Source of the DNA: Malacoraja senta | Taxonomy: Eukaryota | Direction of reading: 5' to 3' | Length of the DNA: 64,000 nucleotides | Assembly: GCA_038087875.1 (NCBI GenBank) | Contig: CM075992.1 | Coordinates: 4,218,001 to 4,282,000, forward strand | Part shown: in pieces, positions 757 through 57,157 of the stretch | Numbering within the stretch: the first letter of the stretch is position 1 | How the letters are laid out: the number at the start of each line of letters is the position of its first letter | The notes under the pieces: model-generated | What the model was told of the DNA's origin: nothing | What the model saw: only the letters and a program-made list of their open reading frames with translations | Databases searched by the model: none | Translations under genes and position numbers: made by a program

Positions 757-892
757 TGTGTTTAAGAAGGAACTGCAGATGCTGGAAAATCGAAGGTAGA
801 CAAAAATGCTGGAGAAGCTCAGCGGGCGAGGCAGCATCTATGGAGCGAAGGAAATAGGCAACGTTTCGGGTCGAAGCCCTTCTTCAGACTCA
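757..892 (-). mobile_element. Mini-PLE 3'-end insertion with hammerhead-like motif
   Basis: Matches the PLE terminus at 48354-48482; 13 bp TSD atacatgcagcca (744-756, 893-905). Confidence 0.85.
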
Positions 893-1065
893 ATACATGC
901 AGCCAAGTAGTTGTTAGTGACATTGATAGGGGGGGTAAATTTCAGCCTTATCGGCAAATGGTGCCAAGGCCACTTTTGCATCCTTGAGAGTGCAGAGTGA
1001 AGAATAGTTTAATCACCTCAATGTTGAACGCAATACATCTGACAATGCGGCACTTATGGAGTCCA

Positions 1066-1263
1066 TATGCAGAAAGGAACTGCAGATGCTGGTTGAAACC
1101 GAAGATAGACACACAATGCTGGAGTAACTCAATGGGACAGGCAGCCTCTCTGGAGAGAAGGGATGGGTTGAGGCGTATCTGAAGAAGGGTCTCGACCCGA
1201 AACGTCACCCATTCCTTCTCTCCAGACATGCTGCCTGTGTTATTCAGGCATTTTGTATCTACC
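1066..1263. mobile_element. Mini-PLE fold-back insertion
   Basis: Inverted arms around CTGAAGAAGGGTCTCGACCCGAAACGTC (1179-1206); 11 bp TSD tatggagtcca (1055-1065, 1264-1274). Confidence 0.85.
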
Positions 1264-1491
1264 TATGGAGTCCAGCTCTGTACAATCAGTCTAAATGTTT
1301 GCGCTTATTGTTGGAATGTAAAAAACCTTTGTGTGAACTCCCCACTGAGCTAAATTTCGCACCTCAAGCATTGTGCAATATTCGTTTTAGCGTTGGATCT
1401 GACGAACCAAACAATTTATCTCCTGGTGGCACAAGGAAGATGAAGCTGGCATAGAGAGGAGCGGCTAATCTTTTGGAAATAGTTGAACATT

Positions 1492-1792
1492 TGGGCGGCA
1501 GCGGTAGAGTTGCTGCCTCACAGCGCCATAGACCCGGGTTCGATCCCGACTACGGGTGCAGTCTGTACGGAGTTCGTTCCTTCTCCCCGTGACCTGCCTG
1601 TGTTTTCTCTGAGATTTTCAGTTTCCTCCCACACTCCGAAGACGTACAGGGTTGTAGGTAAATTGGCGTGGTATAAAAGTTAATTGCCCTTAATGTGTGT
1701 AGGATAGTGTTAATGTGTGGCGATTGCTGGTCAGTGCAGACTCGGTGGGGCCGAATGGCCTGTTTCCGCGCTGTTTCTGGAGACTAAACTCA
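1492..1792 (+). mobile_element. tRNA-derived V-SINE (HE1-like), representative copy
   Basis: tRNA-like head with B box GGTTCGATCC, V-domain-like GTTTCCTCCCACAC..AAGAC, and CR1-like tail GGGCCGAATGGCCTGTTTCC. About 25 copies, e.g. 1-180, 2130-2428, 3890-4116, 7755-8036, 13716-13950, 16655-16920, 40422-40830, 46141-46590, 51251-51535, 56740-57005, 58495-58771. Confidence 0.85.
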
Positions 1793-4540
1793 ACCCATAA
1801 TATCACACAGCAGCGTTTCACTGATTTATTCTATTACTGAACAATTCATAAGGATAAAGTTCTATCTCAACGGCATACAGCTGAGGGTTTGTGATCCAAT
1901 CTAAAGTGTTGTGGTGAGGAAGCTTGATTGCCTGATGCACATTGGCAGACAAAAAACATATGGTCTTTTAAAAGTACTTCAAGGAAGCCATTTTAAGTGG
2001 CCTGGCCTCCATATGACTGATAGGAGCATGTTTGACCTTTAGCTGAAATACTCACTGAGTCACCTAGTTTAGGGACAGTCAGAGGGGCCCAATAAATAGG
2101 AGATAGAAGGAACTGCAGATGCTTTAGACTTTTGGCTATAGAGATGCAGTGCGGAAACAGGCCCTTCAGCCCGCCAAGTCCGTGCTGACCAAAGACCACC
2201 CCGTACACTAACACAATCCTACACACTAGGGACAATTTACAATTTTACCAAAGTCAGTTAACCTACAATCCTGAACGTCTTTGGAGTGTGGGAGGAAACC
2301 GGAGCACCCGGAGAAAACCCACGAGGTCACAGAGAGAACGAACAAACTCTGTAAAGACAGCACCCGTAGTCAGGATCGAACCCGGGACTCTGGCGCTGCA
2401 AGACAAGCAGCTCTACCAATGTGCCACCCAAAGTTTGACATGCTGGTTGCCGTTCGTGCAAGTTGACAAAACAAAAAGACACAATGTGCTGGAGTAACTC
2501 AGTAGGTCAGGCAAGACCTTTGGAGAGCATGGATAGAAGAGGTTTCGGGTCGGGACCCTTCTTCAGATAGATTGATGATGTTTCAGGCCGGGTCCCTACT
2601 TCAGACCAAAGAAGTGTCCCAATCCAAAATGTCATCCCGCCCCCCCCCTTCCCCCACACTCTCCAGAGATGCTGCCAGACCCGCTGAGTTACCCCTGTAT
2701 CTTTTTTTGAGGACTAATAAATTATGGCCCAGCCAAAAACACCAACCTGTGAGCAAATAAAGAAGGGGGGGGGGGAAATAAAGTCCATGCTCAGAATTTC
2801 ACAGTACTTGAAGGCTTGTTGCTTTAAATAGATAATATTGCCCAACATTTAACATCACTGGGCAGCCTGGAGCTAACAGCATGTTGCTCCTGTGGAATCA
2901 AGAGTACTTGGCTTGAAGCCAAAGCTGGAGGCAAGTGAGGACCACACACCCTACAAGAAGTCCTTCTTTGCAGCTCTCAACAATCCAAACGCACTGGTCC
3001 CAAATTTAAAATGGGACCAGGAAAGTGAGCGGGGAGATTTAATTTACATTTTGCGAGGCATAGATAGCGTAGACAACCAGAACCTCCCCCCCCCTCCCCC
3101 CCCCCCACTCCCCGGGTGGAAACATCAAAGACTGGAGGGCATCGATTTATGGTGAGAGCGTCAAAGTTTAAAGGAGATATGCGGGACAAGGCTTTTTTTT
3201 GCGCAGGGTGTGGTAAATTCCTGGAACGTGTTTTGGGGGTGGTGATGGTGGCAGATATGATAGTGTAGGATGGAACTTTAGATGCTGGTTTAAACCGAAG
3301 ACAGACACAAAATGCTGGAGTAACTCAGCAGGACAGGCAGCATTTCTGGAGCAAAGGAATGGGTGACCTTTTGGTTCTTCAGACCCGAAATGTCACCCAT
3401 TCCTTCTCTCCAGAGTTGCTGCCTGTCACGCTGAGTTACTCCAGCATTTTGTGCAGATATGACAGTGGGGTTTAAAAGACTTTAATACGAGCACATGGAT
3501 ATGCAGGGAGCGGAGGGATATGGAGTATGTGCAGATACATCAGAATTGATCTTGGAGCCATGCTTGGTTCAGACATTGTTGGCGTCAAGGCATAGAATGC
3601 TATAAATCTAATGCATACACTTGGAATTAGCATGGTGTGTACAACAGGCGTGGGAAGCAGTGTACTGTACTGTAACATCTCTGTCCTCGGTCATCAATTG
3701 ACAGGTTTTTCTAGGTTGCTAAACCCATGACTTATCAATGGCCAATTAACCTCCAAGCACGATGCAGAACACCAAAGGGGAATCCCACACAGGCATTGAT
3801 AGAAGTCAAACTCCATACAGAGAGCATCTGAACCTTCTGAACCTTGTGAATTTTGTAGTCGGCAGGGCAGTACTCTGCATATCGCCAGCTTGGACAATTT
3901 TACATTTTTATCAAGTCAATTAAACAAGCCAATTAACCTACAAACCTGCGCGTCTTTGGAGTGTGGGAGGAAACCGAAGATCTCGGAGAAAACCCACGCA
4001 GATCACGGGGAGAACGTACAAACTCCATACAGACAGCACCCGTAGTCGGGATCGAACCACGGGTCTCTGGCGCTGCATTTTGCTGTAAGGCAGCTACTCT
4101 ACCGCTGTGCCACCGTGACATCTGAGGTTGTGATCGATCAAACTTGTGTTTCTGGAGCTGTGAGATGGCACAGTTGCACCATAGAAATAAAGAACCGGTT
4201 AATACTGCAAAGGACACAGAGTTGTGGTGTAACTCAGCAGCTCGGGCAGCATCTCTGGAGAACGTGTATAGGTGGAGTTTCGGTTTGAGGTCCTTCATCA
4301 GAGTGATTGTAGGGGGGAATGGGAAGCTGGGAAAGGGGAGAGGCAGGCCAAGGTGTGGCAGGTAACAGGTGGACACAGGTGAGGGGGGAGTTTTTAGCTA
4401 GGCAGATGGTTGGAACAAAAAACAGATATAAGAATAGAGGATGCGAGATGGGTTGCGGATTGTGAAGCATTGTACCATCATGCCAACATCGTGTTCACAT
4501 CTGTGCCTGGACTGCAGCTGTCTGCAAAGCTGGGAAGAAT

Positions 4541-10300: not shown

Positions 10301-10402
10301 TGGAATTCTTTGCCACAGAAGGCTGTGGAGGCCAATGGATATTTTTAAGGCAGAATAGATAGATTCTTGATTAGTACGGGTGTCAGAGGTTATGGGGAGA
10401 AA

Positions 10403-14272: not shown

Positions 14273-14290
14273 CATAACCTACTGGGTTAC

Positions 14291-14712: not shown

Positions 14713-16183
14713 TTCACAGACAGCATCTCTGGAGGACATCAGTATGATTCAATTATACAATAATTCAATATTGTTATATGTACCCATGCAAAATTCTCTG
14801 TCTTGCATACAATCTGGTAAAATCACTCTATATAGATAAGCATAATCACAGATAAAGTACAACAATTGTCGTGTAAGAATAGTAGACTTCACTGAGGCAG
14901 TAATCAAAGAGTCACCACCTTTCTGGCACCAATGTGTCCTTCAAGTTTCAAGGTTTTTCGAGAACCAGAGGACATAGGCTTAAGGTGAGGGGAGAAAGAT
15001 TCAATGGGATCCTGAGAGGTAACTATTTTACACAAAGGGCGGTGGCTGTATGGAACGGGCTGCTGGAGGAGGTAGTTGAGGCAGGTAGCATCCCAACGTT
15101 CGAGAGACATTTAGTCAGGTACATGGATTGGGTAGGTTTAGAGGGATATGGGTCTAAGGCAGGCAGTAGGGACTAGTGTCGGAGGGAACTCCAGATGCTG
15201 GTTTAAACCAAAGATAGACACAAAAAGCAGATGTAACTCAGCGGGACAGGCAGCATCTCTGGAGAAAAGGAATGGGTGACATTTTGGGTCGAGACCCTTC
15301 TTCAGACCCAGCTTTTTGTGTCTATCTTGGGACTAGTGTCGATGGGACATGTTGGTCACCATGGGCAAGGTGGACCAAAGAGCCAGTTTTCACGCTGTAT
15401 GACTCTCTGACTATGACTGCTCCCTAACCTCGACAGTTGCCTCTCTTAAAATTCCCCACCTCTCCTCATCCAAGTTCTTGTTAATGTTACTTCTTAACTG
15501 TTTGACCCCTTTCCTAAAACCTCGTTGTATAGCCTGATGTCTGAGCTTTGGTAAAGCTCCCACAGATGTTCAATATGCTCTATAAATCCAAGGTGTCTTT
15601 CGTACTGAGAAATCTATGCATTGGATGTTCGATTGGCACACCTTGCCCACAGTGACCAACATGTCCCATCTACACTAGTCCCAAGATAGACACAAAAAGC
15701 TGGGTCTGAAGAAGGATCTCAACCTGAAACATCACCCATTCCTTCTCTCCAGAAATGTTTCCTGTCCCGCTGAGTTACTCCAGCATTTATTGTCTCTGCA
15801 TTAGATGTGTTAGCTTCTGGAAAGAACTGGAGAACCAGCCACCAGCAGGAGGAGCTACATTGCCCCATCTATCGAACGGCTATTGTAAATCAGACCAATC
15901 CCCATGCACAGAAAAGATGTGATTTTATTCACTTCTGGGGAGTGAGCTTCAATATCACATGTTGCCGACCACTACCTGTCCTTAAGAAGGCGGTGGTGGG
16001 CTGTTTTTTTTAGCCATGCAGCAGTTATAGAAACATAGAAAATAGGTGCAGCAGTAGGCCATTCGTCCCCTTGAGCCAGCACCGTCATTCAATATGATCA
16101 TGGCTGATCAACCAAAATCAGAACCCCCTTCCTGCTTTCTCCCCATATCCCTTGATTCCGTTAGCCCTAAGAGCTATATCTAA

Positions 16184-26127: not shown

Positions 26128-27039
26128 CTGAATTGAAGATGAAGAGAATAGGGATGTTGTTTAAATTGTACATGAATGAAAGTACAATGAGCTCAAGGTA
26201 ATAAAATTGTACATTTTGGGGGGGAACTGCAGTTCATCGTCAATTGAGGCCCAAGTATAGACAACAAAGCATTATTTATTTATTTTTGTTAAATATATAC
26301 AGTATTAACCATTTCATTATACTATCAGCCCTAGCATTATCTATTGTTGTGTGTAGGAAGGAATTTGATAGATGTAATAGTGGCGTTGAAGAGGCTTTTA
26401 GATAGGCACATGGATATGTAGTTAATGGAGGGATATGGATCACATGCGGGCAGATGATGTCAATGATATTGGCATTATGTTCAGCACAGACATTGTGGGC
26501 CAAAGGCCTGTTCCTGTGCAGGAAGGAGCTGCAGATGCTGGTTTACACCGAAGATAGACACAAAATGCTGGCGAAGCTCAACGGGACAGGCAGTATCTCT
26601 GGAGAAAAGGAATGGGTGACGTTTCAGGCCGAGACCCTTCTTCAGACTGGATTAGGGGGTATTAGCTATAGGGAGAAGTCGGATAGACTTGGATCGTTTT
26701 CTCCGGCATGCCGAAGGTTTCAGGAAGACCTGGTGGACGTATATACAATTACGAGGGGCTTAGATAGCGTCGACAGTCGGAAGCCCTTTTTCACAGGAAG
26801 GAAAAATCAAATACTTAAGGGTGTCGTTTCATGCTGGGAGGAGCAAAGTTTGAAGGAAATGTAGCGGGCAACATTTTTACACAAAGAGTGGTAAGCGCTT
26901 GGAACGTAGCAGGGATTGGTGGTTGAAGCAGATATGACAGTAGCACTTTAGAGACTTTTGAATGGGCACGGATATGCACTTGGCATCATGTTGGCAAGTG
27001 TAGACTAGTTACTTTACTTACCAATGTAGTGCTTTATTA

Positions 27040-28161: not shown

Positions 28162-30639
28162 CTGGAGACAAAATCAGAACGAGTTACCCATGAGAACGTG
28201 CAGTTGAGTCGCTACAGTTTACGATAAGATAAGTAAGTAAGTTTATTGGCCAAGTACCCACATACAAGGAATTTGCCTTGGTGCTCCGCCCACAAGTAAC
28301 AACATGACATACAGTGACAGTTACGAATGACTCAGAAAACACTAAACATTAATAATAATAAAACACCATTGATCAAGCATGTGAACCAACAAAATACCAG
28401 ATCAAAGGGAGGCTACAGATTTTTGGCTGTTGAGTAGAGCAACTACTCGTGGATAAAAACTGTTTTTATGTCTGGCTGTGGCAGCTTTGACAGTCCGGAG
28501 TCGCCTTCCAAAGGGAAGTGATTCAAAGATTTTGTGGCCAGGGTGAGAGGGGTCAGAGATGATCTTGCCTGCTCGCTTCCTGGTCCTTGCAGTGTACAGT
28601 TCATCAATGGAGGGAAGGTTGCAGCCAATAACCTTCTCAGCTGATCGGACGATTCGTGATGCTGCCTTCATTGATGTTTGCAGCGGTAATTGGTTCCCTT
28701 GGGTCACTGCCATTTGCAGTGCAGTAGAATAGTGAAAGGCTTGGATAGAGTGGATGAGGAGAGGATGCTTCCACTAGTGGGAGAGCCTAGGACTAGAGAT
28801 CATAGCTTCAGAATTAAAGGACGTTCTTTTAGGAAGGAGATGAGGAGGAATTTCTATAGTCAGAGGGTGGTGAATCTGTGGAATTCTTTGCCACAGAAGG
28901 CTGTGGAGGCTGTCAGTGGATATTTTTAAGGTGGAGGCTCTTGATTAGTACAGGTGTCAGAGGTTATGGGGATATGTCATGCAAAGAGCAGCAGACAGAG
29001 ACAACTTCAGCAATACTTTGAAAGAGCTAAGTTATCATCATTTAAAACCACTGAAACATTAAAGTAACAGATCACTTTTGAGGTGTTGCAAAATTGAGCA
29101 TGAATTGAAAGTCATCGACTATCATTTCTTTTGGTCAAGGAAACGGCAATAACATCATAACGCTGTCTGTGGATCAGATTAAAGCTTCTTCTACACCAGT
29201 GCTCCCGTTAGATCAAATTTCACGCTTGGAGCTTCAGGTTTGACAGCATTCTAGGTTCAAAGGACCTCGTTCTCCTGACGGTTTAAGAAACAACTGCAGA
29301 TGCTGGAAAAATCGAAGGAAGATACTGTGGAACAGTATCCCTCTTCCCATCAGAACTGCCCCCTCCATCAACTCTTTTAAGTCTAGACTTAAAACTTATT
29401 TCTACTCTCAAGCCTTTCTTGAGGTCCTCTGAGGGAGCGCTGTATGTATGTATGTATTGTTAGATCTACGTACCACTGTATGTAGCATGTTAGTACCTGC
29501 ACTGATGTAAAGCACTTTGGTCAACGAGAGTTGTTTTTAAATGTGTTATAGAAATAAAATTGACTTGACTTGATAAAAATGCTGGAGAAACTCAGCGGGT
29601 GAGGCAGCATCTATGGAGCGAAGGGAAAGGTGACGTACACCCATTTCCTTCGCTCCATAGATGCTGCCTCACCCGCTGAGTTTCTCCAGCATTTTTATCT
29701 ACCTTCGTTCTCCTGACTTGTCAACCTGAATGCTAAAAGGAAGGACAGAGATTTCTAAACCTGCTCCCTCTACTTCTATCCATTTTGCTCGTAGGTCTGA
29801 ACAAGATGAAAGGCTTTAATTAACCCTGTGAAGTAATACAATTCTCTAATCCTAATAAACAGCCAAAAGTAACCTGTGCAAGAACTATCAGATTGGAGAG
29901 AGTTTCAACCTTGTTTGGCTGAGGACTCCCTCCCCCACCTTATTTGCTCCTTCTGGGCATACATTCCATAATTCCACACCATCAAATTAAGTCTGACACC
30001 ACTTCGATAAATGTAACAACATTTTGAGCATTATTAACATTTTGAAGTCCACACTTCAAAACAGCAACTGAGAGCTAAGCAGAGCAAAATTAAATTGGAT
30101 ACGTAGGAAGGAACTGCAGATGCTGGTTTATACCGAGGATAGACACCAAGTGCTAGAGTAAGGTACACAAACATGTTGGAGGAACTCAGCGGGTGCAGCA
30201 GTATCTATGGAGCGAAGGAAATAGGCAACGTTTCGGGCCGAAACCCTTCTTCAGACTGATAGGGGGGAGGGGAGGGGGAGAGGTAACTCCGGGAGTAACT
30301 GCAGGAAAATAATGTGTAACCTTTCGTCTCTGAAGAAGGGTTTCGACCCGACACCCGCCCTTTTGCTCCAGAGATGCTGCCCAAAGATCTTAGAGCAGAG
30401 ATGCTGACTGACCCGCTGAGTTATTCCAGCACTCCGTGCTTAAAATGAAATTGGAGGCAAATTACACAATTCTGAAATAAATGTAAAGCATAAACCCTGC
30501 AAAGCAAAACAATGTGTTGAGCATCGCGGTAAGAAATTAATGCAAGGAATGGGAAGTAGTGATGAGTCAAGTCAAGAGTGGTGTATTGTCATATGTCCCA
30601 GATAAGACAATGTGTGTTCTTACAAAAGTCGACTCTTAC

Positions 30640-34300: not shown

Positions 34301-37016
34301 CAAGAAATGCTGGAGAAACTCGGCGGGTGAGGCAGCACCTATGGAGAGAAGGAATAGGCAACGCTTCGGGTCGAGACCCTGAATGTCGCCTATTCCTTCT
34401 CTCCATAGATGCTGCCTCACCCACTGAGTTTCTCCAGCATGTTTTGTCCACCTTCGATTGTTCCAGCATCTGCAGTTCTTTCGTAAACAAATCAGCCTGA
34501 AGATGGGGCTCAACCCAAAAGCTTTTTGTGTCTTTCTTTTTGCTGCACTGCGCTCCAATAATCCCCTTCCCAAATGCTCAGAGGTCCCGATGGTTTGGCA
34601 TCTGACACGCTGAATGCCGAATCTTCACAATCTCTGTAACTCATCAGGCCTCTGTTCCCTGGCAACCTTTAAACTCACAGGGAATCAACAGTGAGTTAGC
34701 TCTTCGGGCTAAAGGAATCAAGGGATATGGGGGAAAAGGATGGAATGGGGTACCGATTTTAGATGATCAGCCATGATCATATTGAATGGTGGTGCTTCTC
34801 GAAGGGCCGAATGGCCTACTCCTGCACCTATTTTTCTATGTTTCTATGAATAAGTCCTTCACTCTCTTTAAATTCATCATGGCCCTAGTTCCCGTACTCC
34901 CTTTCAACTCACCGAGTTCTGCTTCATGAGCTCCTTGTAAACTTACAGAGAAAATTCATTATATTATTGTTGAACATGTAAAAAAGTAGCAAAGTGCACT
35001 AATAGGTGTTGAGTATTAGGTGCAAAAAGAATATTATTTGGAGTTAATCCAAAATCTACCAGTATAGCATTACTCACTGCAGCAGAATTTCACAAAGTCT
35101 CACTGTACCATTTCCTCCATAACTTTCTTTGTAAGCATTATGTAAAAACACTTTGCCTATGTTGTCCGCTTTTCTCAAACTAGAATTGTGCAATGCACAG
35201 GGGATATATTTGAGGGTGGAATTAAGTAGTTGGTAAGTTACCGTTCTAACAGCCAGAGTTCTGATCTACTGGTTCAAAGACATAAATTCCACTCCCATCA
35301 TGGAAGTTGGGGAATTTAACTATGGGTAATTAAATGAGAATGGAATTAAATTAATATTGACGACCATACTGGACTGTAAAATACCATCTGGTTTCATAAG
35401 TGCCCTTCAGGGAAGAAAATCCGCTGGTCCCATCGAGTGAGCTCCATGTAACTCCAGACTCAGCTGTTTATTATGAGAGTTATCAGACAGATAGTGAGAG
35501 TCTTTGTTCATAGTTGACAATGGCTTGGACGGATGATACATGCCAATATTACTCATGATGTTCACACCCTGTGAATGATTGAATAAATAAAAAATACATT
35601 TGCACGGACGGTGCATGTTTGCAAATTCCCTATGAAAATTTCCACACAACATTTGGTATTGTTAAAAAGAACCTGCGCTAACAAGTGAGAGATTGATTGG
35701 AAAAAAGGGCACAGAGTGCTGGAGTAACTCAATGGGGTCACGCAGCATTCCTGGAGAACGCAAATAGGTGACGTTTCAGGTCGGGATTCTTCTTCAGACT
35801 CAAAGTGCTGGTGTAACTCTGCATTTCAGGCAGCATCTCTGGAGAGCATGGATAGGTGTCATTTCGGGTCAGGGCCCTTCTTCAGATACAATGTGCTGGA
35901 ATAACTCCGTGGGTCAGGTGGCATCTCTGGAGAACATGGATAGGTAACGTTTCGGGTTGGGAGCCTTCTTCAAAGGAAATTAATCACACAGTGTCTGTGG
36001 ATAGTTCTTGGTTTACATGTCCACCCAGGTCATTTCTTCTTTCCCTGCTCCCATCCAGCAGAGGGCATAAAAGCTTGAAAACACACACCACCAGACTCGG
36101 GAACAGCCTCTTCTCCTCTGTTATCAGGCTTGTGAATGGTCCTTCCATAAGATAGGGTGCTGTCCGATTCATCTCTATCCCATTGCGGTCATAGACTTGG
36201 TCTATGGAACTGATGCTGAGAACTATATAGAAACATAGAAAATAGGTGCAGGAGGAGGCCAATTGGCCCTTCGAGACAGCACCGCCATTCATTGTGATCA
36301 TGGCTGATCGTCCCCAATCAATAACCCGTGCCTGCCTTCTCCCCATATCCCTTGATTCCACTAGCCCCTGGAGCTCTATCTAACTCTCTCTTAAATCCAT
36401 CCAGTGACTTGGCCTCCACTGCCCTCTGTGGCAGGGAATTCCACAAATTCACAACTCTCTGGGTGAAAACGATTTTTCTTACCTCAGTCTTAAATGGCCT
36501 CCCCTTTATTGTTCCATCTATTGCGCTTGAGTTTGACTTAATTGTATTTATGTATAGTATTACCTGACCCGTTTGGATGGCATGCAAAACACAGCCTTTC
36601 ACTGTACCTCGGTACACTGGACAATAATAAACATAACTCTAAACTTAAACCTACATGGTAAAGGCGAACTACGCAGAAATACCCTTCAAGGATTGTAAAC
36701 TAGTTCCTTGGTGGGATGAAATCTTGCCATTAGCAGATGGCATATATCACAAAGGAAATCTCACAGTACAAACAGCCTGAGGATATTTTCAATAGTGTTT
36801 TCCAAATGCTATTAAGGCTAATGGCTCATTTTTTGAAGATGGCAACACTGCCAATATCACAATGTCACAATAATGGCAGCAACTTTGCAACTTCTATCTG
36901 GCTTCAAATGCCTAATGCTGAAGATTTTCCATGGTGAGTAAGCCTGTACTGTACTTTAACTGGATACTGTTGGCAGCCATTGACCAGTTATGTCCGGAGA
37001 TCACTTCAACGTGACT

Positions 37017-37310: not shown

Positions 37311-38015
37311 AAAAATAATTGGCCAAAATCTCAAAGTACCCATTTTGGGAATTACCCAGAAAATGTCAGTTTTCTCCATGCGATCAGTGTAAACTTTAAA
37401 CATTGTACTAAACCATAGTCCAATGGTTCGAGAAATCTTTGGCTCCAAAACCTAATATTCTATGCATCTTCATTTTAACATGGATTTCCCAGTCCATCAT
37501 GGGAGCTGATCAATAGGATCAAGGGAACTCCAGTAAGTGCTGCTAATATCATCAAAGACCAGGTATATATCATCAAAGGATCAGGTAGACACACAGTCTC
37601 TTGTCCAGGGTTGTGGAATCGATGACCAGAGGGCATAGGTTCAAGGTAAGGTGGAAAAGATTTAATAGGAATCTGAGGGGTAACCTTTTCACATAAAGGG
37701 TGGTGGGTGTATGGAACGAGCTGCGAGAGGAGGTAGTTGAGGCTTGGACAGCTTACACCTCAGCGGTATGAATATTGACTTCTCTAACCTCAAGTAACCC
37801 TTGCTTTCCCTCTCTCTCTGTACTTCCCCCACTCCAGATCCCAATTAGTTTCACTGTCCTCCTGATTAATTTTACAGATTGAATGCCTCATTGTCACTTT
37901 CCCCTCAGCCAACAATGAGCCATTCTACATTTCCATGATCACCGTCTGCTTTGATCTGTCATTTTCACACCTTACCCTTCCATATCTCTGGTCACCCTGT
38001 TCCCTGACTCTCAGT

Positions 38016-38043
38016 CTGAAGAAGGGTCTCGACCCGAAACGTC
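38016..38043 (+). ncRNA. Minimal type I hammerhead-ribozyme-like motif (representative copy)
   Basis: CUGAAGA-A-GGGU(CUCG)ACCC-GAA-ACGU-C: core boxes, stem II, palindromic ACGU stem III and GUC triplet. Confidence 0.65.
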
Positions 38044-39624
38044 ACCAATTCCTTCTCTCCATAGATGCTGCCTGTCCCGCTGAGTTACTCTTGCATTATG
38101 TGTCCACCTTCTCCATAGATGCTGCCTGACCGGTTGTGTTACTCCAGCACTTGGTGTCCTTTTAAGCTATTCTTGAACCTGGTGGTCACGGTTTTCAGAC
38201 CCTGATACCTTCTTCTCAATGGCAGGAGTGAAATGAGAGCATGGCCAGTGTGGTGTGTGTATAAGAAGGAACTGCAGATGCTGGTTTAAACCAAAGATAG
38301 ACGCAAAAAGCTGGAGTAACTCAGCAGGACGGGCAGCATTTCTGGAGAGTAGGAATGGGTGACGTTTTGGGTCTGAAGAAGGATCTCGACCTGAAACATC
38401 ACCCATTCCTTCTCTACAGAGATACTGCCTGACCCGCTGAGTTACCCCAGCTTTTTATGTCTGCCATTGTGGTGTGGGTCTTTGATGATGCTGGCTGCCT
38501 CTTTTGTGGGTGAATCAGTTTGAAAGAATTGAATGGGTGACTCTTGCTCTGTTTTCTTTCCTGTTTATTTGTTTCTATGGCATCGGAGCCATATCTACCC
38601 CTCAAATCAGTGATCTGTTCATTGTTGTGTTGCTGTCTGTGGGAACTCATTGGGTACAGATAGTTTCACCTGCTGTCAGCATATATGGTTTGGTTTGGAA
38701 CAATTCCATGTAACTTGGAAAGAAAAACAAATTGGCAGCCCACATGGCCACATGTTCTACTGTTGGATCTTGTCCTGCAAGTTATTCGCAGACATGGAGT
38801 GTTGAGCTTCTGCAGAAGTTACTGATGCTTCTGCTAAATGAGTTGTTGGACTCAGTCCCAGCGGTATGGAAAACTAACACAAAGCTTGCAGTTTGGATGA
38901 GGGAGGGCATGCATGATCCCTGCCAAATTAACCTTGCTTGAGTCCGAAAGAGGATGTTGGTCCAGGTTGTGCAAGGAATTCTCCTTAAACTTTAGACGTT
39001 AGAGATACAGCACGGACACAGACCTTTCAGCCCACTGAGTCCATACCAACCAACGATCACCCGTACACTAGCTGCATCCTACACACTAGGAACTAGAAAT
39101 GGCTCGAAGGGCCGAATGGCCTACTCCTGCACCTTTTGTCTATTGTCTAACATTTACAGAAGCCCAATTAACCTGCACGTCGTTGGAATGGAAACTGGAG
39201 CACCCGGAGAAAAGCCAAGCGGTCACATGGAGAATGTACAAACTCCATACAGTTAGCACCCATAGTCAGGATCAAACCTGGGTCTCTGGCGCTGTGAGGC
39301 AGCAACCCTACCGCTGCGGAACTGTGTTACCCCAAATTTGTAAAAATACTTCTTGTTGGGTTCAGGATCAATTGAAGAAGGGTCCCAATCCAAAACATCA
39401 CCACTTTCCATGTCAAGGCTAAAGGACAGCTAAGAGTCAAGCACATTGATAGATTAAGAGACATTTGACTAGACTGAGCAAAAATGGTATAATAGATGGT
39501 ATCAGATGGTGATGTGTAGCACTGAAGCAGATGGGCTTACTGATAGTTTTGTAGCCAAATACATAGATTGTTCGTGATTTGGCCATTTCAGTTCATGCAA
39601 CATTTACTCAAGCATTCTACCACG

Positions 39625-40285: not shown

Positions 40286-40568
40286 AAATCTTCTGATTCT
40301 CTCTCCCTCATCAGTCCAGCATCACCTTAAATGTCTGATTCACCTCACTCAATCCCTAAGATAGTGAGCAAAACACAAAGAAATGCCACCTCAGTACGTT
40401 CTCCAGGGCTGACCCGCTGAGTTTAGTTCAGTTTAGAGATACTGTGCACGAACAGGCCCTTCGTCCCACCGAGTCCACCCCAACCAGCGATCCCCGCACA
40501 CTACCACTATACCACACGCACGAGGGACAATTTACACTGATACCAAGCCAATTAACCTACAAACCTGT

Positions 40569-40657
40569 CTGAAGAAGGGTTTCGGCCCGAAACGTTACCT
40601 ATTTCCTTCGCTCCATAGATGCTGCTGCACCCGCTGAGTTTCTCCAGCATTTTTGTG
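40569..40657 (+). mobile_element. Mini-PLE insertion in a SINE, starting at the hammerhead core
   Basis: 16 bp TSD taacctacaaacctgt (40553-40568, 40658-40673). Confidence 0.88.
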
Positions 40658-42203: not shown

Positions 42204-42726
42204 GGCCCTGTCCCACGGTACGAGTTCATTCCAAGAGCTCTCCCGAGTTAAACAAAAATCTAACTCGTGGTAAGCACGGAGAATAATAATAATAATAATA
42301 ATCATTTTATTTACTGCCGCCTTTCTAACACCCAAGGACACCTTACAATGCATAGAATCACAACAAAACAAAAAAAATACAAAACACATAATCGGAAAAA
42401 ATTAAATATAAAAACACCACAGTACACAAATCAAGGACAGAATTCAATTTCAAGAGCACCAAAAGAAAATAAGAAACACAATTTGATTGAATGTAATGGG
42501 TACGTCGGAGCTCGGGGACGTCTCTTAGCGCTAACGGCAGGTACTCGGGAAGACTCGCTAACGGCAGGTAAGCACGGGAAGACTCGTGAAGATTTTTCAA
42601 CATGATGAAAAATGTCCACGAGAGCCCCGAGTACCGACGAGTGGCCATTACCGTAAATCTCCGAGTTCGAATCAGGGCAAACTCGGGGCGAACTCTTGGA
42701 ATGAACTCGTACCGTGGGACAGGGGT
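42204..42726. mobile_element. CTGTCCCAC-terminus MITE with nested A-rich insertion (about 42283-42490)
   Basis: Colinear with 20653-20970 apart from a ~205 bp insert starting with (AAT)n. Confidence 0.85.
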
Positions 42727-48169: not shown

Positions 48170-48353
48170 CGTCGGAGACCCGGTTCGATCCCGACTACGG
48201 GTGCTGTCTGTAAGGAGTTTGTACGTTCTCCCCGTGACCTGCGTGGGTTTTCCCCAGGAGCTCTGGTTTCCTCCCACACTCCAAAGACATGCAGGTATTT
48301 CGGTAAATTGGCTCGGTAAATGTAAAAGGGAAAAGGCAGCAGATGAATATAGT

Positions 48354-50589
48354 GTTAAAGAAGGAACTGCAGATGCTGGAAAATCAAAGGTACACAAAAT
48401 GCTGGAGAAACTCAGCGGGTGCAGCAGCATCTATGGAGCGAAGGAAACAGGCAACGTTTCGGGCTGAAACCCTTCTTCAGACTGATAGGGGGTGGGGAGA
48501 AGAAAGGAAAAAAGGAAAAAGGCGGAGGAGGAGCCCGAGGGCTGGGGAGGGGAGGAGAGACAACCAGATGGCTGATGAAGGGGAGGGGACAGCAAGGGCT
48601 AGCAGAATTGGGAGAATTCAATGTTCAAACCCCCAGGATGTAGACTGCCCAAGCGGAATATGAGGTGCATTTCCTCCAATTTACGGTGTTGCTCGCTGTG
48701 GCCATGGAGGAGACCCAGGACAGAGAGGTCAGATACGGAATGGGAGGGGGAGTTGAAGTGCTGAGCCACCGGGAGTTCAGGTTGGTTATTGCGGACCGAT
48801 GTTCGGCGAAACGATCGCCAAGCCTCCGCTTGGTCTCACCGATGTAGATCAGCTGGCATCTAGAGCAGCGAATGCAATAGATGAGGTTGGAGGAGATGCA
48901 GGTGAACCTCTGTCGCACCTGGAACGACTGCTTGGGTCCTTGAATGGTGTGGAGGGGGGAGGTGGAGGGACAAGTGTTGCATCTCTTGCGGTTGCAAGGG
49001 AAAGTACCAGGGGGAGGGGGTGGTATGGGAGGGAAGGAATGAATTGACAAGGGAGTTACGGAGGGAGCGGTCTTTGCGGAAGGCAGACATGGGAGGAGAT
49101 GGGAAGATGTGGCGAGTGGTGGGGTCACGTTGGAGGTGACGAAACTGACGGAGGATCACTTGTTGTATGTGACGGCTGGTGGGGTGAAAGGTGAGGACTA
49201 GGGGGACTCTGCCTTTGTTGTGAGTGGGGGGATGGGGAGAGAGAGCAGTGTTGCGGGTATGGCAGAGACCCTGGTGCGAGCCTCATCTATGGTGGAGGAG
49301 GGGAACCCCCGTTCCCTGAAGAATGAGGACATTTCAGATGCCCTGGTGTGGAACGCCTCATCCTGGGAGCAGATGCGGCGTAGACGGAGGAATTGGGAGT
49401 GGGGGATGGAGTCCTTACAGGAAGCAGGGTGGGAAGAAGTGTAGTCCAGATAGCCATGGGAGTCGGTGGGTTTGTAGTGGAATCCACTACAAACCCACCG
49501 GTGGTTTCCACTACAAACCCACCGACTCCCATGGCTATCTGGACTACACTTCTTCCCACCCTGCTTCCTGTAAGGACTCCATCCCCCACTCCCAATTCCT
49601 CCGTCTACGCCGCATCTGCTCCAGGATGAGGCGTTCCACACCAGGGCATCTGAAATGTCCTCATTCTTCAGGGAACGGGGGTTCCCTCCTCCACCATAGA
49701 TGAGGCTCGCACCAGGGTCTCTGCCATACCCCGCAACACTGCTCTCTCTCCCCATCCCCCCCACTCACAACAAGGGCAGAGTCCCCTAGTCCTCACCTTT
49801 CACCCCACCAGCCGTCACATACAACAAGTGATCCTCCGTCATTTCGTCACCTCCAACGTGACCCCACCACTCGCCACATCTTCCCATCTCCCCCCATGTC
49901 GCCTCCGCAAAGACCGCTCCTCGTAACTCCCTTGTCAATTCTTCCCTTCCTCCCATACCACCCCATCCCCTGGTACTTTCCCTTGCAACCGCAAGAGATG
50001 CAACACTTGTCCCTTCACCTCCCCCTCCACACCATTCAAGGACCCAAGCAGTCGTTCCAGGTGCGACAGAGGTTCACCTGCATCTCCTCCAACCTCATCT
50101 ATTGCATTCGCTGCTCTAGATGCCAGCTGATCTACATCGGTGAGACCAAGCGGAGGCTTGGCGATCGTTTCGCCGAACATTGGTCCGCAATAACCAACCT
50201 GAACTCCCGGTGGCTCAGCACTTCAACTCCCCCTCCCATTCCGTATCTGACCTCTCTGTCCTGGGTCTCCTCCATGGCCACAGCGAGCAACACCGTAAAT
50301 TGGAGGAAATGCACCTCATATTCCGCTTGGGCAGTCTACATCCTGGTGGCCTGAACATTGAATTCTCCCAATTCTGCTAGCCCTTGCTGTCCCCTCCCCT
50401 TCATCAGCCATCTGGTTGTCTCCTCCCCTCCCCCAGCCCTCGGGCTCCTCCTCCGCCTTTTTCCTTTTTTCCTTTCTTCTCCCCACCCCCTATCAGTCTG
50501 AAGAAGGGTTTCGGCCCAAAACGTTACCTATTTCCTTCGCTCCATAGATGCTGCTGCACCCGCTGAGTTTCTCCAGCATTTTTGTGTAC
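48354..50589. mobile_element. Penelope-like element 3' portion as a 2.2 kb head-to-head palindrome with 17 bp TSD
   Basis: Both arms encode RT thumb (YKPTDSHGYLDYTSSHP...SQFLRLRRICS) and GIY-YIG endonuclease (CNRKRCNTC...NLIYCIRC...YIGETKRRLGDRFAEH); cagcagatgaatatagt at 48337-48353 and 50590-50606. Confidence 0.92.
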
Positions 50590-50631
50590 CAGCAGATGAA
50601 TATAGTTTGTCATTTGTTAATTCCAAGGGCT

Positions 50632-50650
50632 GCACCACCATCTAGTGGTT
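50632..50650 (-). promoter_or_regulatory. Candidate CTCF site
   Basis: Minus strand AACCACTAGATGGTGGTGC resembles the CTCF core CCASYAGRKGGCRS; motif match only. Confidence 0.4.
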
Positions 50651-51554
50651 GTCAGTAGTAACTGCTGCTCATTGTAAACAAGGCAAGGGTCACTGATTGA
50701 TCACAGGACCTTTGACAAACAGGCCCTGAAGCATGGGCAGCTTACAACCCAATGATATGAATATTGATTTATTTAACTTCAAGTAACGCCGGCATGCCCT
50801 CTCCCCATCCCTCCCCCACCCAAGTCATACCACCTTCTCGTTTTCACCCAACAAACAGCTAACAATGGCCTGTATCCTTTATCATCGTTACGTTTTTGCA
50901 TATCTTTCATTCATTGTACAATATCTCTCTACATACACCATCGTCCGTATCTCTCGTTTCCCTTTCCACCGACTTTCAGTCCGAAGAAGGGTCTCGACCT
51001 GAAACGTTGCCCATTCCTGCTCTCCAGAGCTGCTGCCTGTCCCGCTGAGTTACTCCAGCTGTTTCTGCCTATCTTCGGTTTAAACCAGTATCCGCAGTTC
51101 CTTCCTGCACGAGGCCAATGGTAAGGTCTGCTATGGTCTTATGCACAATTAAAAATGCACTAATGCCCATTGAAAAAGCACCGACATCAACCACTCGGTT
51201 ACACTAATTGCTGGGCCAAAAAGGAAAGGCCACGTGGAATTGGTGTTCCAAGTTTAGTTTAGTTTAGAGATACAGCACGGCCCACCGAGTCCACGCCGAC
51301 CAGCGATCCCCATACGCTAGCACTATCCCACACACTAGGCACAATTTTACAACTTTACCAAAGCCAATTAACCTACAAACCTGTATGTCTTTGGAGTGTG
51401 TGAGGAAACCGGAGCACCCGGAGCAACACCCACTTGGTCACAGGGAGAACGTACAAACTCTACACAGACAGCACCCGTAGCTAGGATCGAACCCCGGGTC
51501 TCGGGCGCTGTGAGGTAGCAACTCTACCGCTGTGCATCTGTGGCCACCCCGTAA

Positions 51555-52268
51555 CGTACCAAGCTCTCTGCGCATCCCTCTACAATTGGACCCTCGACTT
51601 CCTCATCCACAGACTGTCTGTATTGGTGGAAATGTGTCATCCTCGATAACAATCAGCACGGGAGCACCTCAAGGCTGCGTGCTCAGCCCTCTGCTTTACT
51701 CACTCTATACTCATGACTGCATAGCCGGACATAGTGCGAACTCCATCATCAAGTTCGCCGACGACACCACTGTGGTGGGACGAATCACTGATGGGGACGA
51801 GTCAGAGTATAGAAGTGAGATCGATCGATTGACCAAATGGTGCCTGCACAATAACCTGGCTCTCAACACCAGCAAAACCAAGGAACTGATTGTGGACTTT
51901 GGAAGGGGTAGGATAGGGACCCACAAGCCCGTTTATATCAACGGGACGATGGTGGAAAGAGTCAAGAACTTCAAATTCCTGGGCATGCATATTTCCGAAG
52001 ATCTTTCCAGGTCCAAGCACACTGATGCATTTATAAAGAAAGCACATCAGCGCCTCTACTTCCTGAGAAGATTACGGAGAGTCGGTATGTCGAGGAGGAC
52101 TCTCTCGAACTTCTACAGGTGCACAGTAGAGAGCATGCTGACTGGTTGCATCGTGGCCTGGTTTGGCAACTTGAGCGTCCATGAGCGGAAAAGAATGCAG
52201 AGAGCTGTGACCACTGCCCAGTCCATCATCGGCTCTGACCTCCCTACCATCGAAGGGATCTATCGCAC
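51555..52268 (+). mobile_element. Rex1/Babar-clade LINE RT fragment
   Basis: STGAPQGCVLSPLLYSLYTHDC, IIKFADDTTVVG, KKAHQRLYFLRRL. Related fragments at about 28230-28660, 32580-33270, 41660-42140, 44615-44870 and 54770-54990. Confidence 0.85.
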
Positions 52269-53664
52269 TCAAAAAGGCAGCATCTCTGGGTAGTAACTCT
52301 CTTGACTTGACTTGACTTGACTAGACTAATGGGCAATTTATTCAAGCTGGTGCACACCAGGAGACCAGTCAAAGCTGATCTGCCAAGTGCAACTGTGGTA
52401 CGGTTTTTATATTCTCAGATGACAAGATTACGCAGAACATGGTTAACACTAAAACTAAGTCTTGATTACAACCTGAAACGTCACCCATTCCTTCTACCCA
52501 GAGATGCTGCCTGTCCCACTGAGTGACTCCAGCCTTTTGTGTCTATCTTCAAGGTAACCAAAGGCTTGGTTGGTTATGAGGAACCATTCATAGCAACAAG
52601 GCCCATTACAGCTGCTGACCTTCCCACCAACAAAGAGATCAACAAGGAGCACTGCTTTTACCTAATATTATTTTTATATTTCTCCTTAAGTTATGGATGC
52701 AATATTTTTCCTTTTGGAATTTTGTGTCTTAAGAAAATATATGAATATTATTTCTTCACATGCCTTCATTTTCAGTAGCGAGAGCACACTTCCTCAATAG
52801 TAAAGGGAGTTTGGAAGATATTGGAAGGATCGCTCTCTATTAGTAGTCATCCCATTCAAACTAAAGACTGATAACAGATGAGGATCAACTAACTGATGTC
52901 CTATTGATACTGTTTGTTCATTCCAGGCCTTGGATCATTGTTAGACACAAAGCGCTGACTCAGTGGATAAGACAGCATCTCTGGAGAAAGAGGATGGGGA
53001 TGTTTCAGGTAGGGACCCTTCCTCAGACTTCATTGATGATTAGATCATTGACGTCGAGCTTGACATTAAACATGGAGCAAGACTGATTGAAGTCAAAGGC
53101 ATCGAAAATGCTTCCATACACAAAAGAACACTTTAAAAATTGATCCAGCAATATTTCAACCGTGAGCAGAGCCTTTGCCAAGGAATGCGTATTCATAGTA
53201 CGTTGCAAGTTGAGTTCAAGGATACGGCCTATTAAATTCATATCAATACCGTATATATGGATCACGAAGAGATTGCAGAAGGTGCTGCTTTGTTGACCCT
53301 CATTGTCTTTGCTGGGTCCTCCCTGATAAAGATGTCTGCACGAACGGTGCTCATGCCTGATAAAAGCACGACTGACAAACTCTGCAAGGAAGGAATTGAA
53401 CTAAAGTCGGAACGATGGCTCTCACTGCAAGAGCAGGTCAGAGGGTGGGCATCCTGCTGCAAATGACTGCGGACTTCCCAGAGCAATTCCACCAACTCCC
53501 AGACACCAGTCTGGAATGCGGTCACAGGTCATAAGTTATAGGAGTTATCCTCCTCGTCCTCCTGAGTTGCAAGGAATAAAGTCCCAGCCTACTCAACCTG
53601 GAGTGGTGCAAAAGTAATTTAAAGTGCAACAATGGGACAATGAAACAATGAAATGAAATTAAGT

Positions 53665-54125
53665 TAGTAGTAGTAGCCCCTCTCCTCGGTCATGACTGAC
53701 CATGGGTGATACATCCTAGTTTGCAGGTGATGTGTGGTCGGATGCAAGCCTGGACGATCGATGTCATATGGAGGACAGGCTGTTGCCCATGCAGCACGTC
53801 CCCCCTCTCCACGTCGCTGATCGATCCAAAGGAACAGCAGGGCCGTTACAGTTTGGCACCAGCGCCGTCGCAGGAGCTGCCAGAGTGGGGTTGTAGACAA
53901 CGACGAACTGCCTTAGCGGCTCCGACTCTGGATTTTCTTGAGGTTTACTCCAGGAGCCTTTTCCATGACTGGATATGGCCACAAGGCAGTGGAGGTTTTA
54001 AATCAGCGTTTTCCCTCTCCTAGATGGACTGCCTTCCCAGGCTGACGAGCCCCATCTGCCCGAGACTCGTGGGGGCGGGAGCGTCTACCTTCCCGTGCAG
54101 GTCTATAGCACCTGCCCACTGCCCA
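53665..54125 (-). mobile_element. Non-autonomous RTE-derived short element
   Basis: RTE-5'UTR-like GGCTCGTCAGCCTGGGAAGGCAGTCCATCTAGGAGAGGGAAAAC, (CTA)n tail, 15 bp TSD gaaatgaa(a/g)ttaagt (53650-53664, 54126-54140). Confidence 0.75.
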
Positions 54126-54442
54126 GAAATGAAGTTAAGTGTAAGAGTGTATGGCGGCAACACGAAGGGGAGTGAGGGGTGGGGTGAAAAAATGGATGAT
54201 TGGGCAAGCGTCATATAGCATTGAGTGTTGGGTGCGGACATCCGAGCAATCAAGCTTCTGCATCTTCTCCAACAAGGTAGAAGAGAGGAGGTGGACTGGA
54301 GGGGCTCCAGGCATCCTTGATGATACATCCAGCCTTCCTCCCATGACACAACATGAAGATGGACTGGATGGAAGGAAGTGACAAGCTTGTGATGAACTGG
54401 GCTGTGTTCACTACTCTCTGCAGGTTCAGGTGGACAAGACCA

Positions 54443-54767
54443 GTGGCGGCACTGTGGCATAGCTGGTAGAGCCGCTGCCTCACAGGGCCAGAGTCCCAGG
54501 TTCGATCCTGAACTTGGGCACTGTCTGTGTGGAGTTTGCACGTTCTACCTGTGACTGCGTGGGTTTCATCCACGTGCTCCGGTTTCCTCCCACATCCCAA
54601 AGACGTGCGAGTTCGTAGGTTAATTGGCCTCTGTAAATTTCCATAGCGTGTTGAGAGTGGATGGGAAAGTGGGGTAACATCAAACCCCATGTGAATGGGT
54701 GATCGATGGTCAGCATGGGACTTGGTGGGCCGAAGGGCCTGTTTCCATGCTGTATCTCTAAACTAAA
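54443..54767 (+). mobile_element. V-SINE (HE1-like), second subfamily
   Basis: Same head, V domain and tail, with a different post-V segment. Confidence 0.8.
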
Positions 54768-57028
54768 CCAAGCAGAGCAGTTGCCATACCAGGCTGAGAC
54801 AAGTCCCACCAGAATACTTTCTGTAAAGCATCTGTAGAAGTTCGAGACAATCCTTCTGGATATGCTGAATCTTCTTAGACTCCTAAGAAAGTAAATATCC
54901 TGATGTGCTTTCTTCAACATTGCATCAGAGTGAAGGGACCAGGTCAGGTTGCTGATGATATAGATGTGTAGGAGCACAAAGCTGTTACCCGTCATCTCTG
55001 CGGATGTGGCAATAAGGACAAGGTTGTTTCCTCAGGTCACCAAACAGCTGAGCAAAGAAGGGTCTCGACCCGAAACGCCACCTATTCCATTTCAACAGAG
55101 ATGCTGTCTGTCCCGCGGAGTTACTCCAGCACTTTGTGTCACTCTTCTATCTTGTTGACATTGAGGGTTAGGTTGTCCTGACACCTTGACGCAAGGCTCT
55201 CGATCCGTTTCCTGTTGTTCACCTCATCATTGCTGTTGATCCAGCCGACAACAACGGTACCATCGGTGAACTTAACGATCGAGTTGGCGCTGTCCCTGGT
55301 CGACTTTCACACACTCATCCAAAAACCCTGCGGAGCCAAAGAAAAAACCCCATTGTTCTTGAGGCGTGGTGTTACTGTAATTGTGGGGGAAGCAGAAGCT
55401 CATTTGCCAAGACTGATGCACAAAGTTCAATAAAGAATATGTAAATTGATAACCAATCTCGCAAAGGCAAAGGTATTGATCGATGATGTCAATGTGCACT
55501 GTCTACACAATGATCGATCAAAGTGTTTGACCTTGGGTTTATTGACTTAAGGCTGTTGCCAATTGCTTTCCATGGGGTGCCATAATCCAAAGTGCACATT
55601 TATCAGTCAGCAATATCATTGGTGCTTTGAAGATCATACTATGCTTCACCCTCGATTGCAATCTCTCTTGTTTTGTTTATTAGGCTGGGACATGTCATGT
55701 TTGCTTTCGACTTCTGTAAGTTTCCAAACAAATCATCTTCCTGCAGCTATGGTATATAGTCATACAGTCATGGAGTCATAGGGTCTTACAGCATGGAAAC
55801 AGGTCCTTCAGCCCAACTTGCCCACACCACCCAACGTGTCCCCATCTACACTAGTCCCACCTGCCTGCATTTAGACAATAGACAATAGGCAATAGACAAT
55901 AGGTGCAGGAGTAGGCCATTTGGCCCTTCGAGCCAGCACCGCCATTCAATGTGATCATGGCTGATCACCCCCAATCAGTACCCCGTTCCTGCCTTCTCCC
56001 CATATCCCTGACTCCGCTATTTTTAAGAGCCCTATCTAGCTCTCTCTTGAAAGAATCCAGAGAACCTGCCTCCACCAGAGAATTCCACACTCACCACTCT
56101 CTGTGAGAAAATGTGTTTCCTCGTCTCCGTTCTAAATGGCTTACTCCTTATTCTTAAACTGTGGCCCCTGGTTCTGGACTCCCCCAACATCGGGAACATG
56201 TTTCCTGCCTCTAGCGTGTCCAAGCCCTTAACAATCTTATATGTTTCAATGAGATATCCTCTCATCCTTCTAAACACCAGAGTGTACAAGCATTTGGCCC
56301 CTATACCTGTCCTATACTGGAGTGTGTGTACTGGTAATCAATCACAATCTCCTTTGTCTTGCTGACATTGAGGGAGAGGTTGTAGTCTCGGCACCAGGTT
56401 ACGAGGTTCATGTAAGGTGTGGTAGGAAAGTACGTTCGTTCCTTTCAAGATTCCAAGGTTCCAATTATTGCCCAGCTTTATGAGATAGCTGTAAATGAAA
56501 GATCACAATTGCAATTGTATTGTGTATAATGACCGAACCAGCACTTCTTACATAAGTATTTGGAGTCACGGAGCGATACAACATGTAAACAGAACCTGTG
56601 GCCAACTTGCCCAAGCTGACCAAGGTGCCCATCTACCCTAGTCCCCACCTGCTCGTATTTGGCCCATATCCTTCTAAACCTTCTAAACCTATCTTAATGT
56701 ATTTTAAATGTTACCTGCCTCAACTACTACCTTTGGCACTTGCAGCGCCAGAGACCCAGGTTCGACCCCGACTACGGGTGCTGTCAGTACGGAGTTTTGT
56801 AAGTTCTCCCGTGACCACGTGGGTTTTCTCCGAGATCTTCGGTTTCCTCCCACACTCCCAAGGCGTACAGGTATGTAGGTAAATTGGCTTGGTAAATGTA
56901 ACAATTGTCCCTAGTGTGTGTAGGATAGTGTTAACACGCGGGGATCGCTGGTCGGCACGGACCCGGTGGGCCGAAGGGCCCGTTTCCGTGCTGTATCTCT
57001 AAATTAAACCAAATAAAACTATAACAAC

Positions 57029-57157
57029 TGAAGTCTGAAGAAGGGTTTCGGCCCGAAACGTTACCTATTTCCTTCGCTCCATAGATGCTGCTGCACCCGC
57101 TGAGTTTCTCCAGCATTTTTGTGTACCTTCGATTTCCAGCATCTGCAGTTCCTTCTT
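57029..57157 (+). mobile_element. Mini-PLE insertion
   Basis: 15 bp TSD taaaactataacaac (57014-57028, 57158-57172); hammerhead-like motif 57035-57062. Confidence 0.88.

Follow-up and report, generated by a model that had tools for sequence, protein, structure and literature searches.

We analyzed a 64,000-base window of the Malacoraja senta genome (contig CM075992.1, positions 4,218,001 to 4,282,000), in which a short repeat unit carrying a minimal hammerhead ribozyme motif is dispersed in many copies. Judging from their sequence, these repeats very probably arose by insertion of fragments of a terminal repeat that bears the hammerhead and belongs to Penelope-like elements (PLEs) of four or more subfamilies. 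Earlier papers already describe the ribozyme motif, how it is dispersed and how the insertions are built. The one unexpected feature of these copies, and the new detail here, is a shared 5' boundary at the edge of the ribozyme, of which we found no description for solo copies in the open-access literature. We lean slightly towards an interpretation in which most of the short copies are dead-end copies of the mRNA leader, made from an internal start back to the 5' end of the RNA.

Copies of the unit and their parent element

All copy counts given here refer to this window. Screening it with a profile hidden Markov model (HMM) built from 16 window copies yielded 64 unit matches in 46 clusters, and the reversed, uncomplemented window, used as a control, gave none. 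The matches span 5,652 of the 64,000 bases (about 9% of the window), some flank included. A first-pass annotation of this DNA had announced more than 20 copies, with ten example positions, and the unit is present at all ten; its claims of a PLE origin, a very high copy number and a dimer-type minimal type I hammerhead are likewise supported. The seven pairs of target-site duplications (TSDs) that it quoted are all exact direct repeats, of 13, 11, 10, 13, 13, 16 and 15 bp in order, which corrects the size range from 11-16 to 10-16 bp (the third, 3251/3453, reaches 15 bp if one mismatch is allowed). By automatic search, a flanking repeat of at least 9 bp was detected at 8 of the 46 clusters and in 5 of 161 flank pairs that had been mismatched as a control; one of these eight is a simple repeat, so most copies are left with no recognizable TSD. 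Exact motif-pattern scans found nothing in viral contigs or metagenome contigs.

Regarding the parent element, the sequence at 48354-50589, previously annotated as one PLE, is composed of two 5'-truncated and frameshifted arms of about 1.1 kb, 97% alike, that lie head to head near 49500 and are enclosed by a 17-bp TSD (48337-48353 and 50590-50606). Both contain the end of the reverse transcriptase (RT) thumb, a CX4CxxC linker and a GIY-YIG domain. The left arm (48354..49500, minus strand) continues through the 3' untranslated region (3'UTR) and an intact hammerhead (C3 at 48480) to a long 3' end with a tail; the right arm (49501..50590, plus strand) carries a hammerhead (C3 at 50498) that has lost G12, and has a short 3' end at +93, numbering the C of CUGA as +1 and the preceding base as -1. 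A third 5'-truncated copy, of subfamily A2 (57571..58092, minus strand), retains the GIY-YIG end, the 3'UTR, a decayed hammerhead and a short end. The GIY-YIG domain matched PF01541 with E-values of 0.0002-0.0005, just below the cutoff, and its internal CxxC and the CX2-5CxxC linker were found by motif alignment. The RT in the window is limited to the thumb end, and a relative (P0011) matches RVT_1 weakly. The best named homologues belong to Leucoraja, Mobula and Hypanus (skate and rays). From its domains and linker motif, the parent would be an endonuclease-bearing (EN+) PLE of the Neptune/Nematis type, since passages of PMC8557442 give this linker as a mark of Neptune and Nematis that is absent in Penelope and Poseidon.

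As described in passages of PMC8557442 and PMC3846280, Neptune and Nematis EN+ PLEs share with the present copies the C-terminal GIY-YIG with CxxC, the Cys linker, 5' truncation, an inverted truncated partner, a tail at one end, TSDs and solo pseudo-long terminal repeats (pLTRs). They differ in the target: TSDs measure 10-17 bp here versus 8-10 bp in Adineta, and none of the eight TSD-defined sites of the window is a microsatellite. The unit sits 3' of the GIY-YIG reading frame in the long arms, and its earlier description as the 3' terminus of the PLE is correct in that respect, but incomplete, because in PLEs this sequence also serves as the 5' leader of the next copy. We sorted the copies by eye into at least four subfamilies (A, A2, B and C), each with short and upstream-extended copies. 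The extended copies of every subfamily run into a pyrimidine-rich 3'UTR, and those of A, A2 and B reach the PLE coding sequence or its end.

At its 3' side the unit ends either near +93 (short) or near +126 to +131 (long), about 35 nt apart, and two 3' ends are also seen in distant relatives, a set of 80 loci at roughly 30-50% protein identity. Inverted pairs combine one long and one short arm end in all eight that were readable by eye (two more were unreadable). The resulting anatomy is 5' truncation, an inverted partner copy and a tail of 30-40 bp at one end. A tail 'present only at one end' was described earlier (passages of PMC8557442 and PMC3846280), and Frangieh et al. trace it to two internal reverse-transcription starts downstream of the hammerhead (PMC11167929), which the two 3' ends found here match. 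According to passages of the same study, the PLE protein cuts and extends both target strands and requires 172 nt of open reading frame (ORF) RNA located further downstream, and cutting by the Anolis ribozyme depends on the presence of the protein of the element. The element used there, Poseidon PAc from Anolis carolinensis, resembles ours in several respects: its hammerhead lies upstream of two RT starts that define a tail of 30-40 bp, the two strands of the target are each cut and extended, and RNA-seq ends are absent where the ribozyme would cut. Unlike ours, it has no CX2-5CxxC linker. Leader-only short insertions are not discussed in the main text of that paper, although the coverage in its Fig. 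S2 may bear on them. Besides, the sequence AGAUGCUG, near +49 in 57032-57160 and other long copies, can pair with either of two CAGCAU repeats, each located 10-20 nt before one 3' end; this predicted pairing may mark the start sites, with weak backing from folding.

The shared 5' boundary and the origin of the short copies

The 5' ends were counted on 53 arms, after excluding 11 of the 64 matches (3 were duplicates, 3 lay inside tandems, 4 were weak and 1 touched the edge of the window). The 5' edge of the ribozyme is reached by 35 of them, and 23 of these stop within -3..+4, where 2.2 stops would be expected from the rate between +5 and +45; the other 12 extend past the edge. Copies 26645 and 25059 were entered as upstream-extended even though this is doubtful, a choice that disfavors a leader origin. 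Among the 21 arms bounded by a TSD or an inversion junction, ten begin at -3..-1 and none further upstream. The preferred start of the unit is 1-3 bases ahead of CUGA, which is not the predicted cut site, about 30 nt downstream, near which five arms begin (+24 to +29). The boundary sequence TCAGTCT fits the initiator consensus. Of the six copies whose first base is A(-3), five are immediately preceded by TG or TGA, letters that, according to the TSD, are untemplated in two copies.

For comparison we used reads and contigs of relatives, with fragmented poly(A) RNA from a related organism. These showed heterogeneous loose ends at 48481-48483, that is, at -1..-3, among the 24 ends listed (2,662 further ones exist), and joints from 48483 carried a single C in two runs, which we read as a G before A(-3). 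Depth was about 4,000-4,500 over the unit and 100-420 over the ORF. Reads on the unit fell about equally in both orientations and 89% of them continued into unlike sequence, a balanced pattern that fits passive transcription of dispersed copies. In run X24, first mates over the ORF (48700-49470) mapped to the minus strand about 1.2 to 4 times as often as to the plus strand, unlike the unit, which was strand-balanced. PLE promoters sit in the terminal repeat, as reported in passages of PMC2377424. In the distant relatives, TATAAA is found 36-41 nt ahead of CUGA in 29 of 43 motifs, a position that predicts a start few bases before stem I. Loci L004, L021, L013 and related ones present CCAAT-like and TATA boxes about 40-70 nt before CUGA, and four short inverted arms of relatives begin about 80 nt upstream of CUGA.

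If most of the short copies derive from the leader, the A of TCAGTCT (-3) would be the transcription start, and the protein, sitting close to the 5' end of the mRNA, would prime on the cut target at either internal site. Reverse transcription would then cover only the 95-130 nt to the end of the RNA, giving inserts of 95-130 bp, in a way that resembles retroviral strong-stop DNA. With each target strand priming one such cDNA, the two products would be joined head to head, often after trimming of one of them. Without the downstream binding region, such leader copies would rarely move again and would decay. The ribozyme would be kept by selection in active masters, probably cutting only as a protein-assisted dimer, and would decay once inserted. 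In a broader and more tentative form, which we consider somewhat less likely than not, PLEs at large would produce a by-product similar to strong-stop DNA, the leader of each mRNA being copied and inserted from either start to a capped end three bases ahead of the hammerhead. If true, this would explain why solo hammerheads are so numerous genome-wide, why stem I has only 2 bp and why tandems are required for productive transposition. Each short copy would record the start site as a fossil, and the long/short inverted pairs would be the trace left by a protein dimer with two bound RNAs, a complex that could also unite two half-ribozymes. The sharp boundaries bear modestly on the PLE transposition cycle and on the role of the hammerhead; the window copies offer a cheap test of the PLE RNA start and of the excess of solo hammerheads over coding copies.

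Several observations weigh against a leader origin. The data on internal starts derive from a Poseidon element, which belongs to another clade. We detected no peak of RNA beginnings or ends in the fragmented poly(A) RNA of the relative, a material that tells little about start or cut sites, and low-complexity sequence specific to the family accounts in part for the drop in depth directly before the unit. The extra G could be copied from the cap, for which we found no supporting passage in the literature. No TATA motif was present upstream in the seven window regions checked. Among 13 short arms of distant relatives, sampled only beside ORF-bearing copies, the starts are scattered and 1 lies near the predicted site. 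We found no full-length element, and no full-length chondrichthyan PLE protein among 81 longer matches, so that no ORF start could be matched to the tail. The ATG at +50 is open to the end of the tail in copy 887 and meets a stop within the tail in the translated B and C copies.

One could argue that the short copies are ordinary 5'-truncated 3'-end copies, and that their ends pile up where RT is arrested at the pyrimidine tract or by a bound protein. We regard this as possible, although rather improbable. A pyrimidine-rich tract is present in every upstream-extended copy (0.62-0.93 versus a median of 0.5), the 12 arms of 35 that pass the ribozyme edge agree with it, and short solo motifs have already been attributed to truncated PLEs in passages of PMC4209133. 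However, the ends fall within few bases instead of being scattered along the tract, and the hammerhead module is weakly folded (z near 0), with the stops located past it and not before. A stall also leaves unexplained the recurrent TG/TGA before A(-3).

The first-pass annotation had seen in these repeats a separate non-autonomous progeny. An independent mini-PLE family, with a master starting at -3 and mobilized in trans, would account for the copy excess over the ORF and for the common 5' end. The two young short copies (40569 and 57035) are identical over 90 columns, the inverted copies 3265 and 38262 have the same junction, and non-autonomous PLE derivatives are known (MRC1, in passages of PMC8557442; retrozymes, in passages of 10.64898/2026.07.22.740005). 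Yet short copies lack a lineage of their own, since they are interleaved with extended ones (9 label changes versus 8.6 when shuffled, in a 30-row tree of low support), and the boundary is common to the four subfamilies. Both members of the identical pair share 99% identity with the long arm at 50498, and the 3265/38262 junction lies on a 3-nt microhomology, with the long and short arm ends swapped. We consider this explanation unlikely.

Even less probable is that the 5' edge is a 3' splice site, the short copies being derived from spliced transcripts whose first exon is tiny. Subfamilies A, A2 and B do have a pyrimidine tract and CAG ahead of the motif, and the Penelope intron of D. virilis ends at the 5' end of helix I (passages of PMC4209133). 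Against it, we found no TGAAG|GT, TGAG|GT or consensus donor in seven upstream regions, and no joint ending at the edge among the 15 joints listed (216 more exist). The bases ahead of the boundary differ among copies, and the relatives lack the CAG. Finally, an origin from ribozyme-cut circularized monomers, as in non-LTR retrozymes, is suggested by one three-unit 88-bp tandem and by the five arms starting at +24 to +29, but is very hard to sustain when the majority of 5' ends precede the cut by about 30 nt and retain the whole core, and when the tandem joins a short end to about -1, not to the cut site, with 0 of its 3 units intact.

Non-LTR retrozymes do resemble these copies in being short, non-coding, provided with a type I hammerhead and akin to PLE terminal repeats and they are known from one chondrichthyan (passages of PMC7229834 and of the preprint by Li, Clavereau and Pollet 2026). 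They form tandem arrays with intact ribozymes, whereas here we found dispersed singles, inverted pairs and one decayed array, which we rejected as a retrozyme array because none of its three units has a complete hammerhead. This array (35698..35972, minus strand) contains three head-to-tail units of subfamily C, 71-77% alike. At its junctions the short 3' end of one unit meets about -1 of the next, and a similar junction precedes 5195 and follows 2604. The arrangement fits a template jump from the 5' end of one RNA to the short start site of the next.

The hammerhead motif and its decay

By all the features examined, the motif is a PLE minimal hammerhead, with cleavage as a prediction. In the reference module (50495..50527, plus strand), TCAGTCT overlaps the 5' strand of stem I and CUGAAGA, followed by the extra A, a 4-bp stem II, GAAA (mutated in this copy) and ACGU, with the cut predicted after +28. 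Both boxes were found at canonical spacing in 21 motifs, eight of which are intact, with a 4-bp stem II, ACGU and a cleavable triplet. Among the ten motifs quoted previously, six are intact (1179, 38016, 40569, 57035, 26645 and 30254) and four defective: 5195 lacks the palindrome, 25059 the GAAA, 15305 both G12 and the palindrome, and 887 has a mismatch in stem II. The stem II variation reported earlier does keep pairing, but is a one-sided change from U-A to U-G and not compensatory. Stem III is palindromic as described, ACGU being the majority sequence in the four subfamilies and in most relatives. As for the extra A and the stem I of about 2 bp, which had been noted as caveats, both are published features of PLE hammerheads. 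The extra A is present in 33 of 33 aligned window copies, and the relatives provided 30 hammerhead-like motifs in 27 of the 80 loci, about 105 nt past the ORF match, with the same extra A and short stem I.

To assess covariation we used 18 hand-picked sequences (8 from the window and 10 of the 30 motifs from relatives); since these sequences share ancestry and were also the source of the structure itself, the counts serve as support and not as a probability. The extra A occurs in all 18, and the pair beside it is G-C in 15 and G-U in 3. Overall, 93% of the cells pair, and six of seven pairs are changed on both sides, a level of pairing that no shuffled or slid control attains. Both stem I pairs adjacent to the core form in 18 of 18 sequences, with two-sided changes, in this hand-picked and related set; pair -2:+30, for instance, is G-C in 8 and C-G in 10. 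A distal extension of stem I (upstream CUAU or CUCU with AUAG or AGAG) was rejected, as it fails in 38016 and 57665.

The subfamily majorities differ at 0 of 13 core positions versus 20 of 75 others (p 0.034). Within copies, mutated CpGs amount to 25 of 99 in the core versus 27 of 157 elsewhere, which means that CpGs of the core decay much as the others do, and non-CpG core positions are mutated in 8 of 311 cases, a low rate that results partly from copy selection. On this sequence evidence, selection on the ribozyme appears to act in the masters and not in the inserted copies. Predicted energies were -5 to -10 kcal/mol for the active dimer fold and -20 to -25 kcal/mol for the best cofold, the former lying 11-17 kcal/mol above the best two-strand fold. 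These unfavorable values agree with the protein-dependent cutting reported for the Anolis ribozyme in passages of PMC11167929. RNA ends did not peak in one poly(A) run of the relative, an insensitive test. Hence, the idea that working half-sites are scattered over the window is not borne out: most have decayed, the dimer fold is unfavorable and there is no RNA end peak. Rfam at gathering thresholds gave 0 matches in the window, where minimal motifs are not expected to score, and folding of the 3' part revealed no consistent structure (z from -2.2 to +1.4 over 8 sequences).

Dispersed single minimal type I hammerheads were reported by the thousands in PLE pLTRs by Cervera and De la Pena (2014; PMC4209133). 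In the passages compared, those hammerheads are alike in their core boxes, the nucleotide between 9 and 10.1, the G10.1-C11.1 pair, the palindromic stem III, the short helix I and the location after the ORF, as well as in appearing as thousands of dispersed singles, with several families per genome. They differ in stem II, of 4 bp here versus 7-8 bp in Schistosoma and 6 bp in D. virilis, and in stem I, which is only 2 bp here. Cartilaginous fishes are not named in those passages, nor is a 5' boundary common to solo copies.

Individual insertions and other window features

Several insertions are flanked by TSDs. Copy 40567..40657 (plus strand), young, short and intact, runs from -2 to the short end within a 16-bp TSD (40553/40658), and 57029..57157 (plus strand), also young, short and intact, runs from -3 to the long end within a 15-bp TSD (57014/57158), with three extra letters on its 5' side. 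The short copy 757..892 (minus strand) extends from -3 to the long end, with two extra 5' letters and a 13-bp TSD (744/893). The inverted mini-insertion 1066..1263 comprises a minus arm from +29 to the long end and a plus arm from -1 to the short end, the latter with the intact motif at 1179, within an 11-bp TSD (1055/1264). At 3265..3452 the minus arm starts from -2 and has the long end, and the plus arm starts from about +15 and has the short end (TSD 3251/3453). In 15182..15328 the minus arm runs from -2 to the long end and the plus arm from about +75 to the short end, with a 13-bp TSD (15169/15329); part of this mini-insertion and its flank is covered by a 163-bp inverted duplication (15216-15378 versus 15633-15795, 87%). 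A further inverted mini-insertion, 38262..38469, shows a minus arm from about +16 to the long end and a plus arm from -2 to the short end. In subfamily B, the copy at 37738..38110 (plus strand) reaches about 280 bp upstream into PLE sequence, and its motif (C3 at 38016) is intact.

As the first-pass annotation had pointed out, there are copies in keratin introns: 8 of the 64 matches lie between the Filament-family exons of an intermediate-filament (type I keratin-like) gene (minus strand, 31104 to about 22330). Intron 1 contains a subfamily A copy followed by a partial B with a long end (30103..30275, minus strand; intact, C3 at 30254). It also holds an inverted mini-insertion without the CUGA box (29280..29704), with arms from +24 and +27, a 13-bp TSD and about 260 bp of foreign DNA inside the long arm. 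Intron 2 contains a subfamily B copy with an intact motif and a long end (26517..26648, minus strand). Both of these intact motifs, 30254 and 26645, have the sense orientation in the keratin pre-mRNA, where they lie 3.6 kb apart. The heterodimer that these half-sites would form has a predicted energy of -7.4 kcal/mol versus -20.1 kcal/mol for the best fold, and a host role of the half-sites is unlikely.

Other repeats are also present in the window. Two B units, 96% alike, are cut at +25 by an element with AAGTC repeats (42098-42244, 42686-42724 and 43589-43706); 39-bp inverted ends in this region look like those of a miniature inverted-repeat transposable element (MITE). A 549-aa open RT frame at 17026-18672 (plus strand) matches RVT_1 with an E-value of 3.6e-32 and is presumably CR1-like; an A-type unit lies on the opposite strand at its 5' edge. 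Finally, a 259-aa frame at 51514-52290 (plus strand), with matches to RVT_1 and ALKBH8_N, is the end of another long interspersed nuclear element (LINE).

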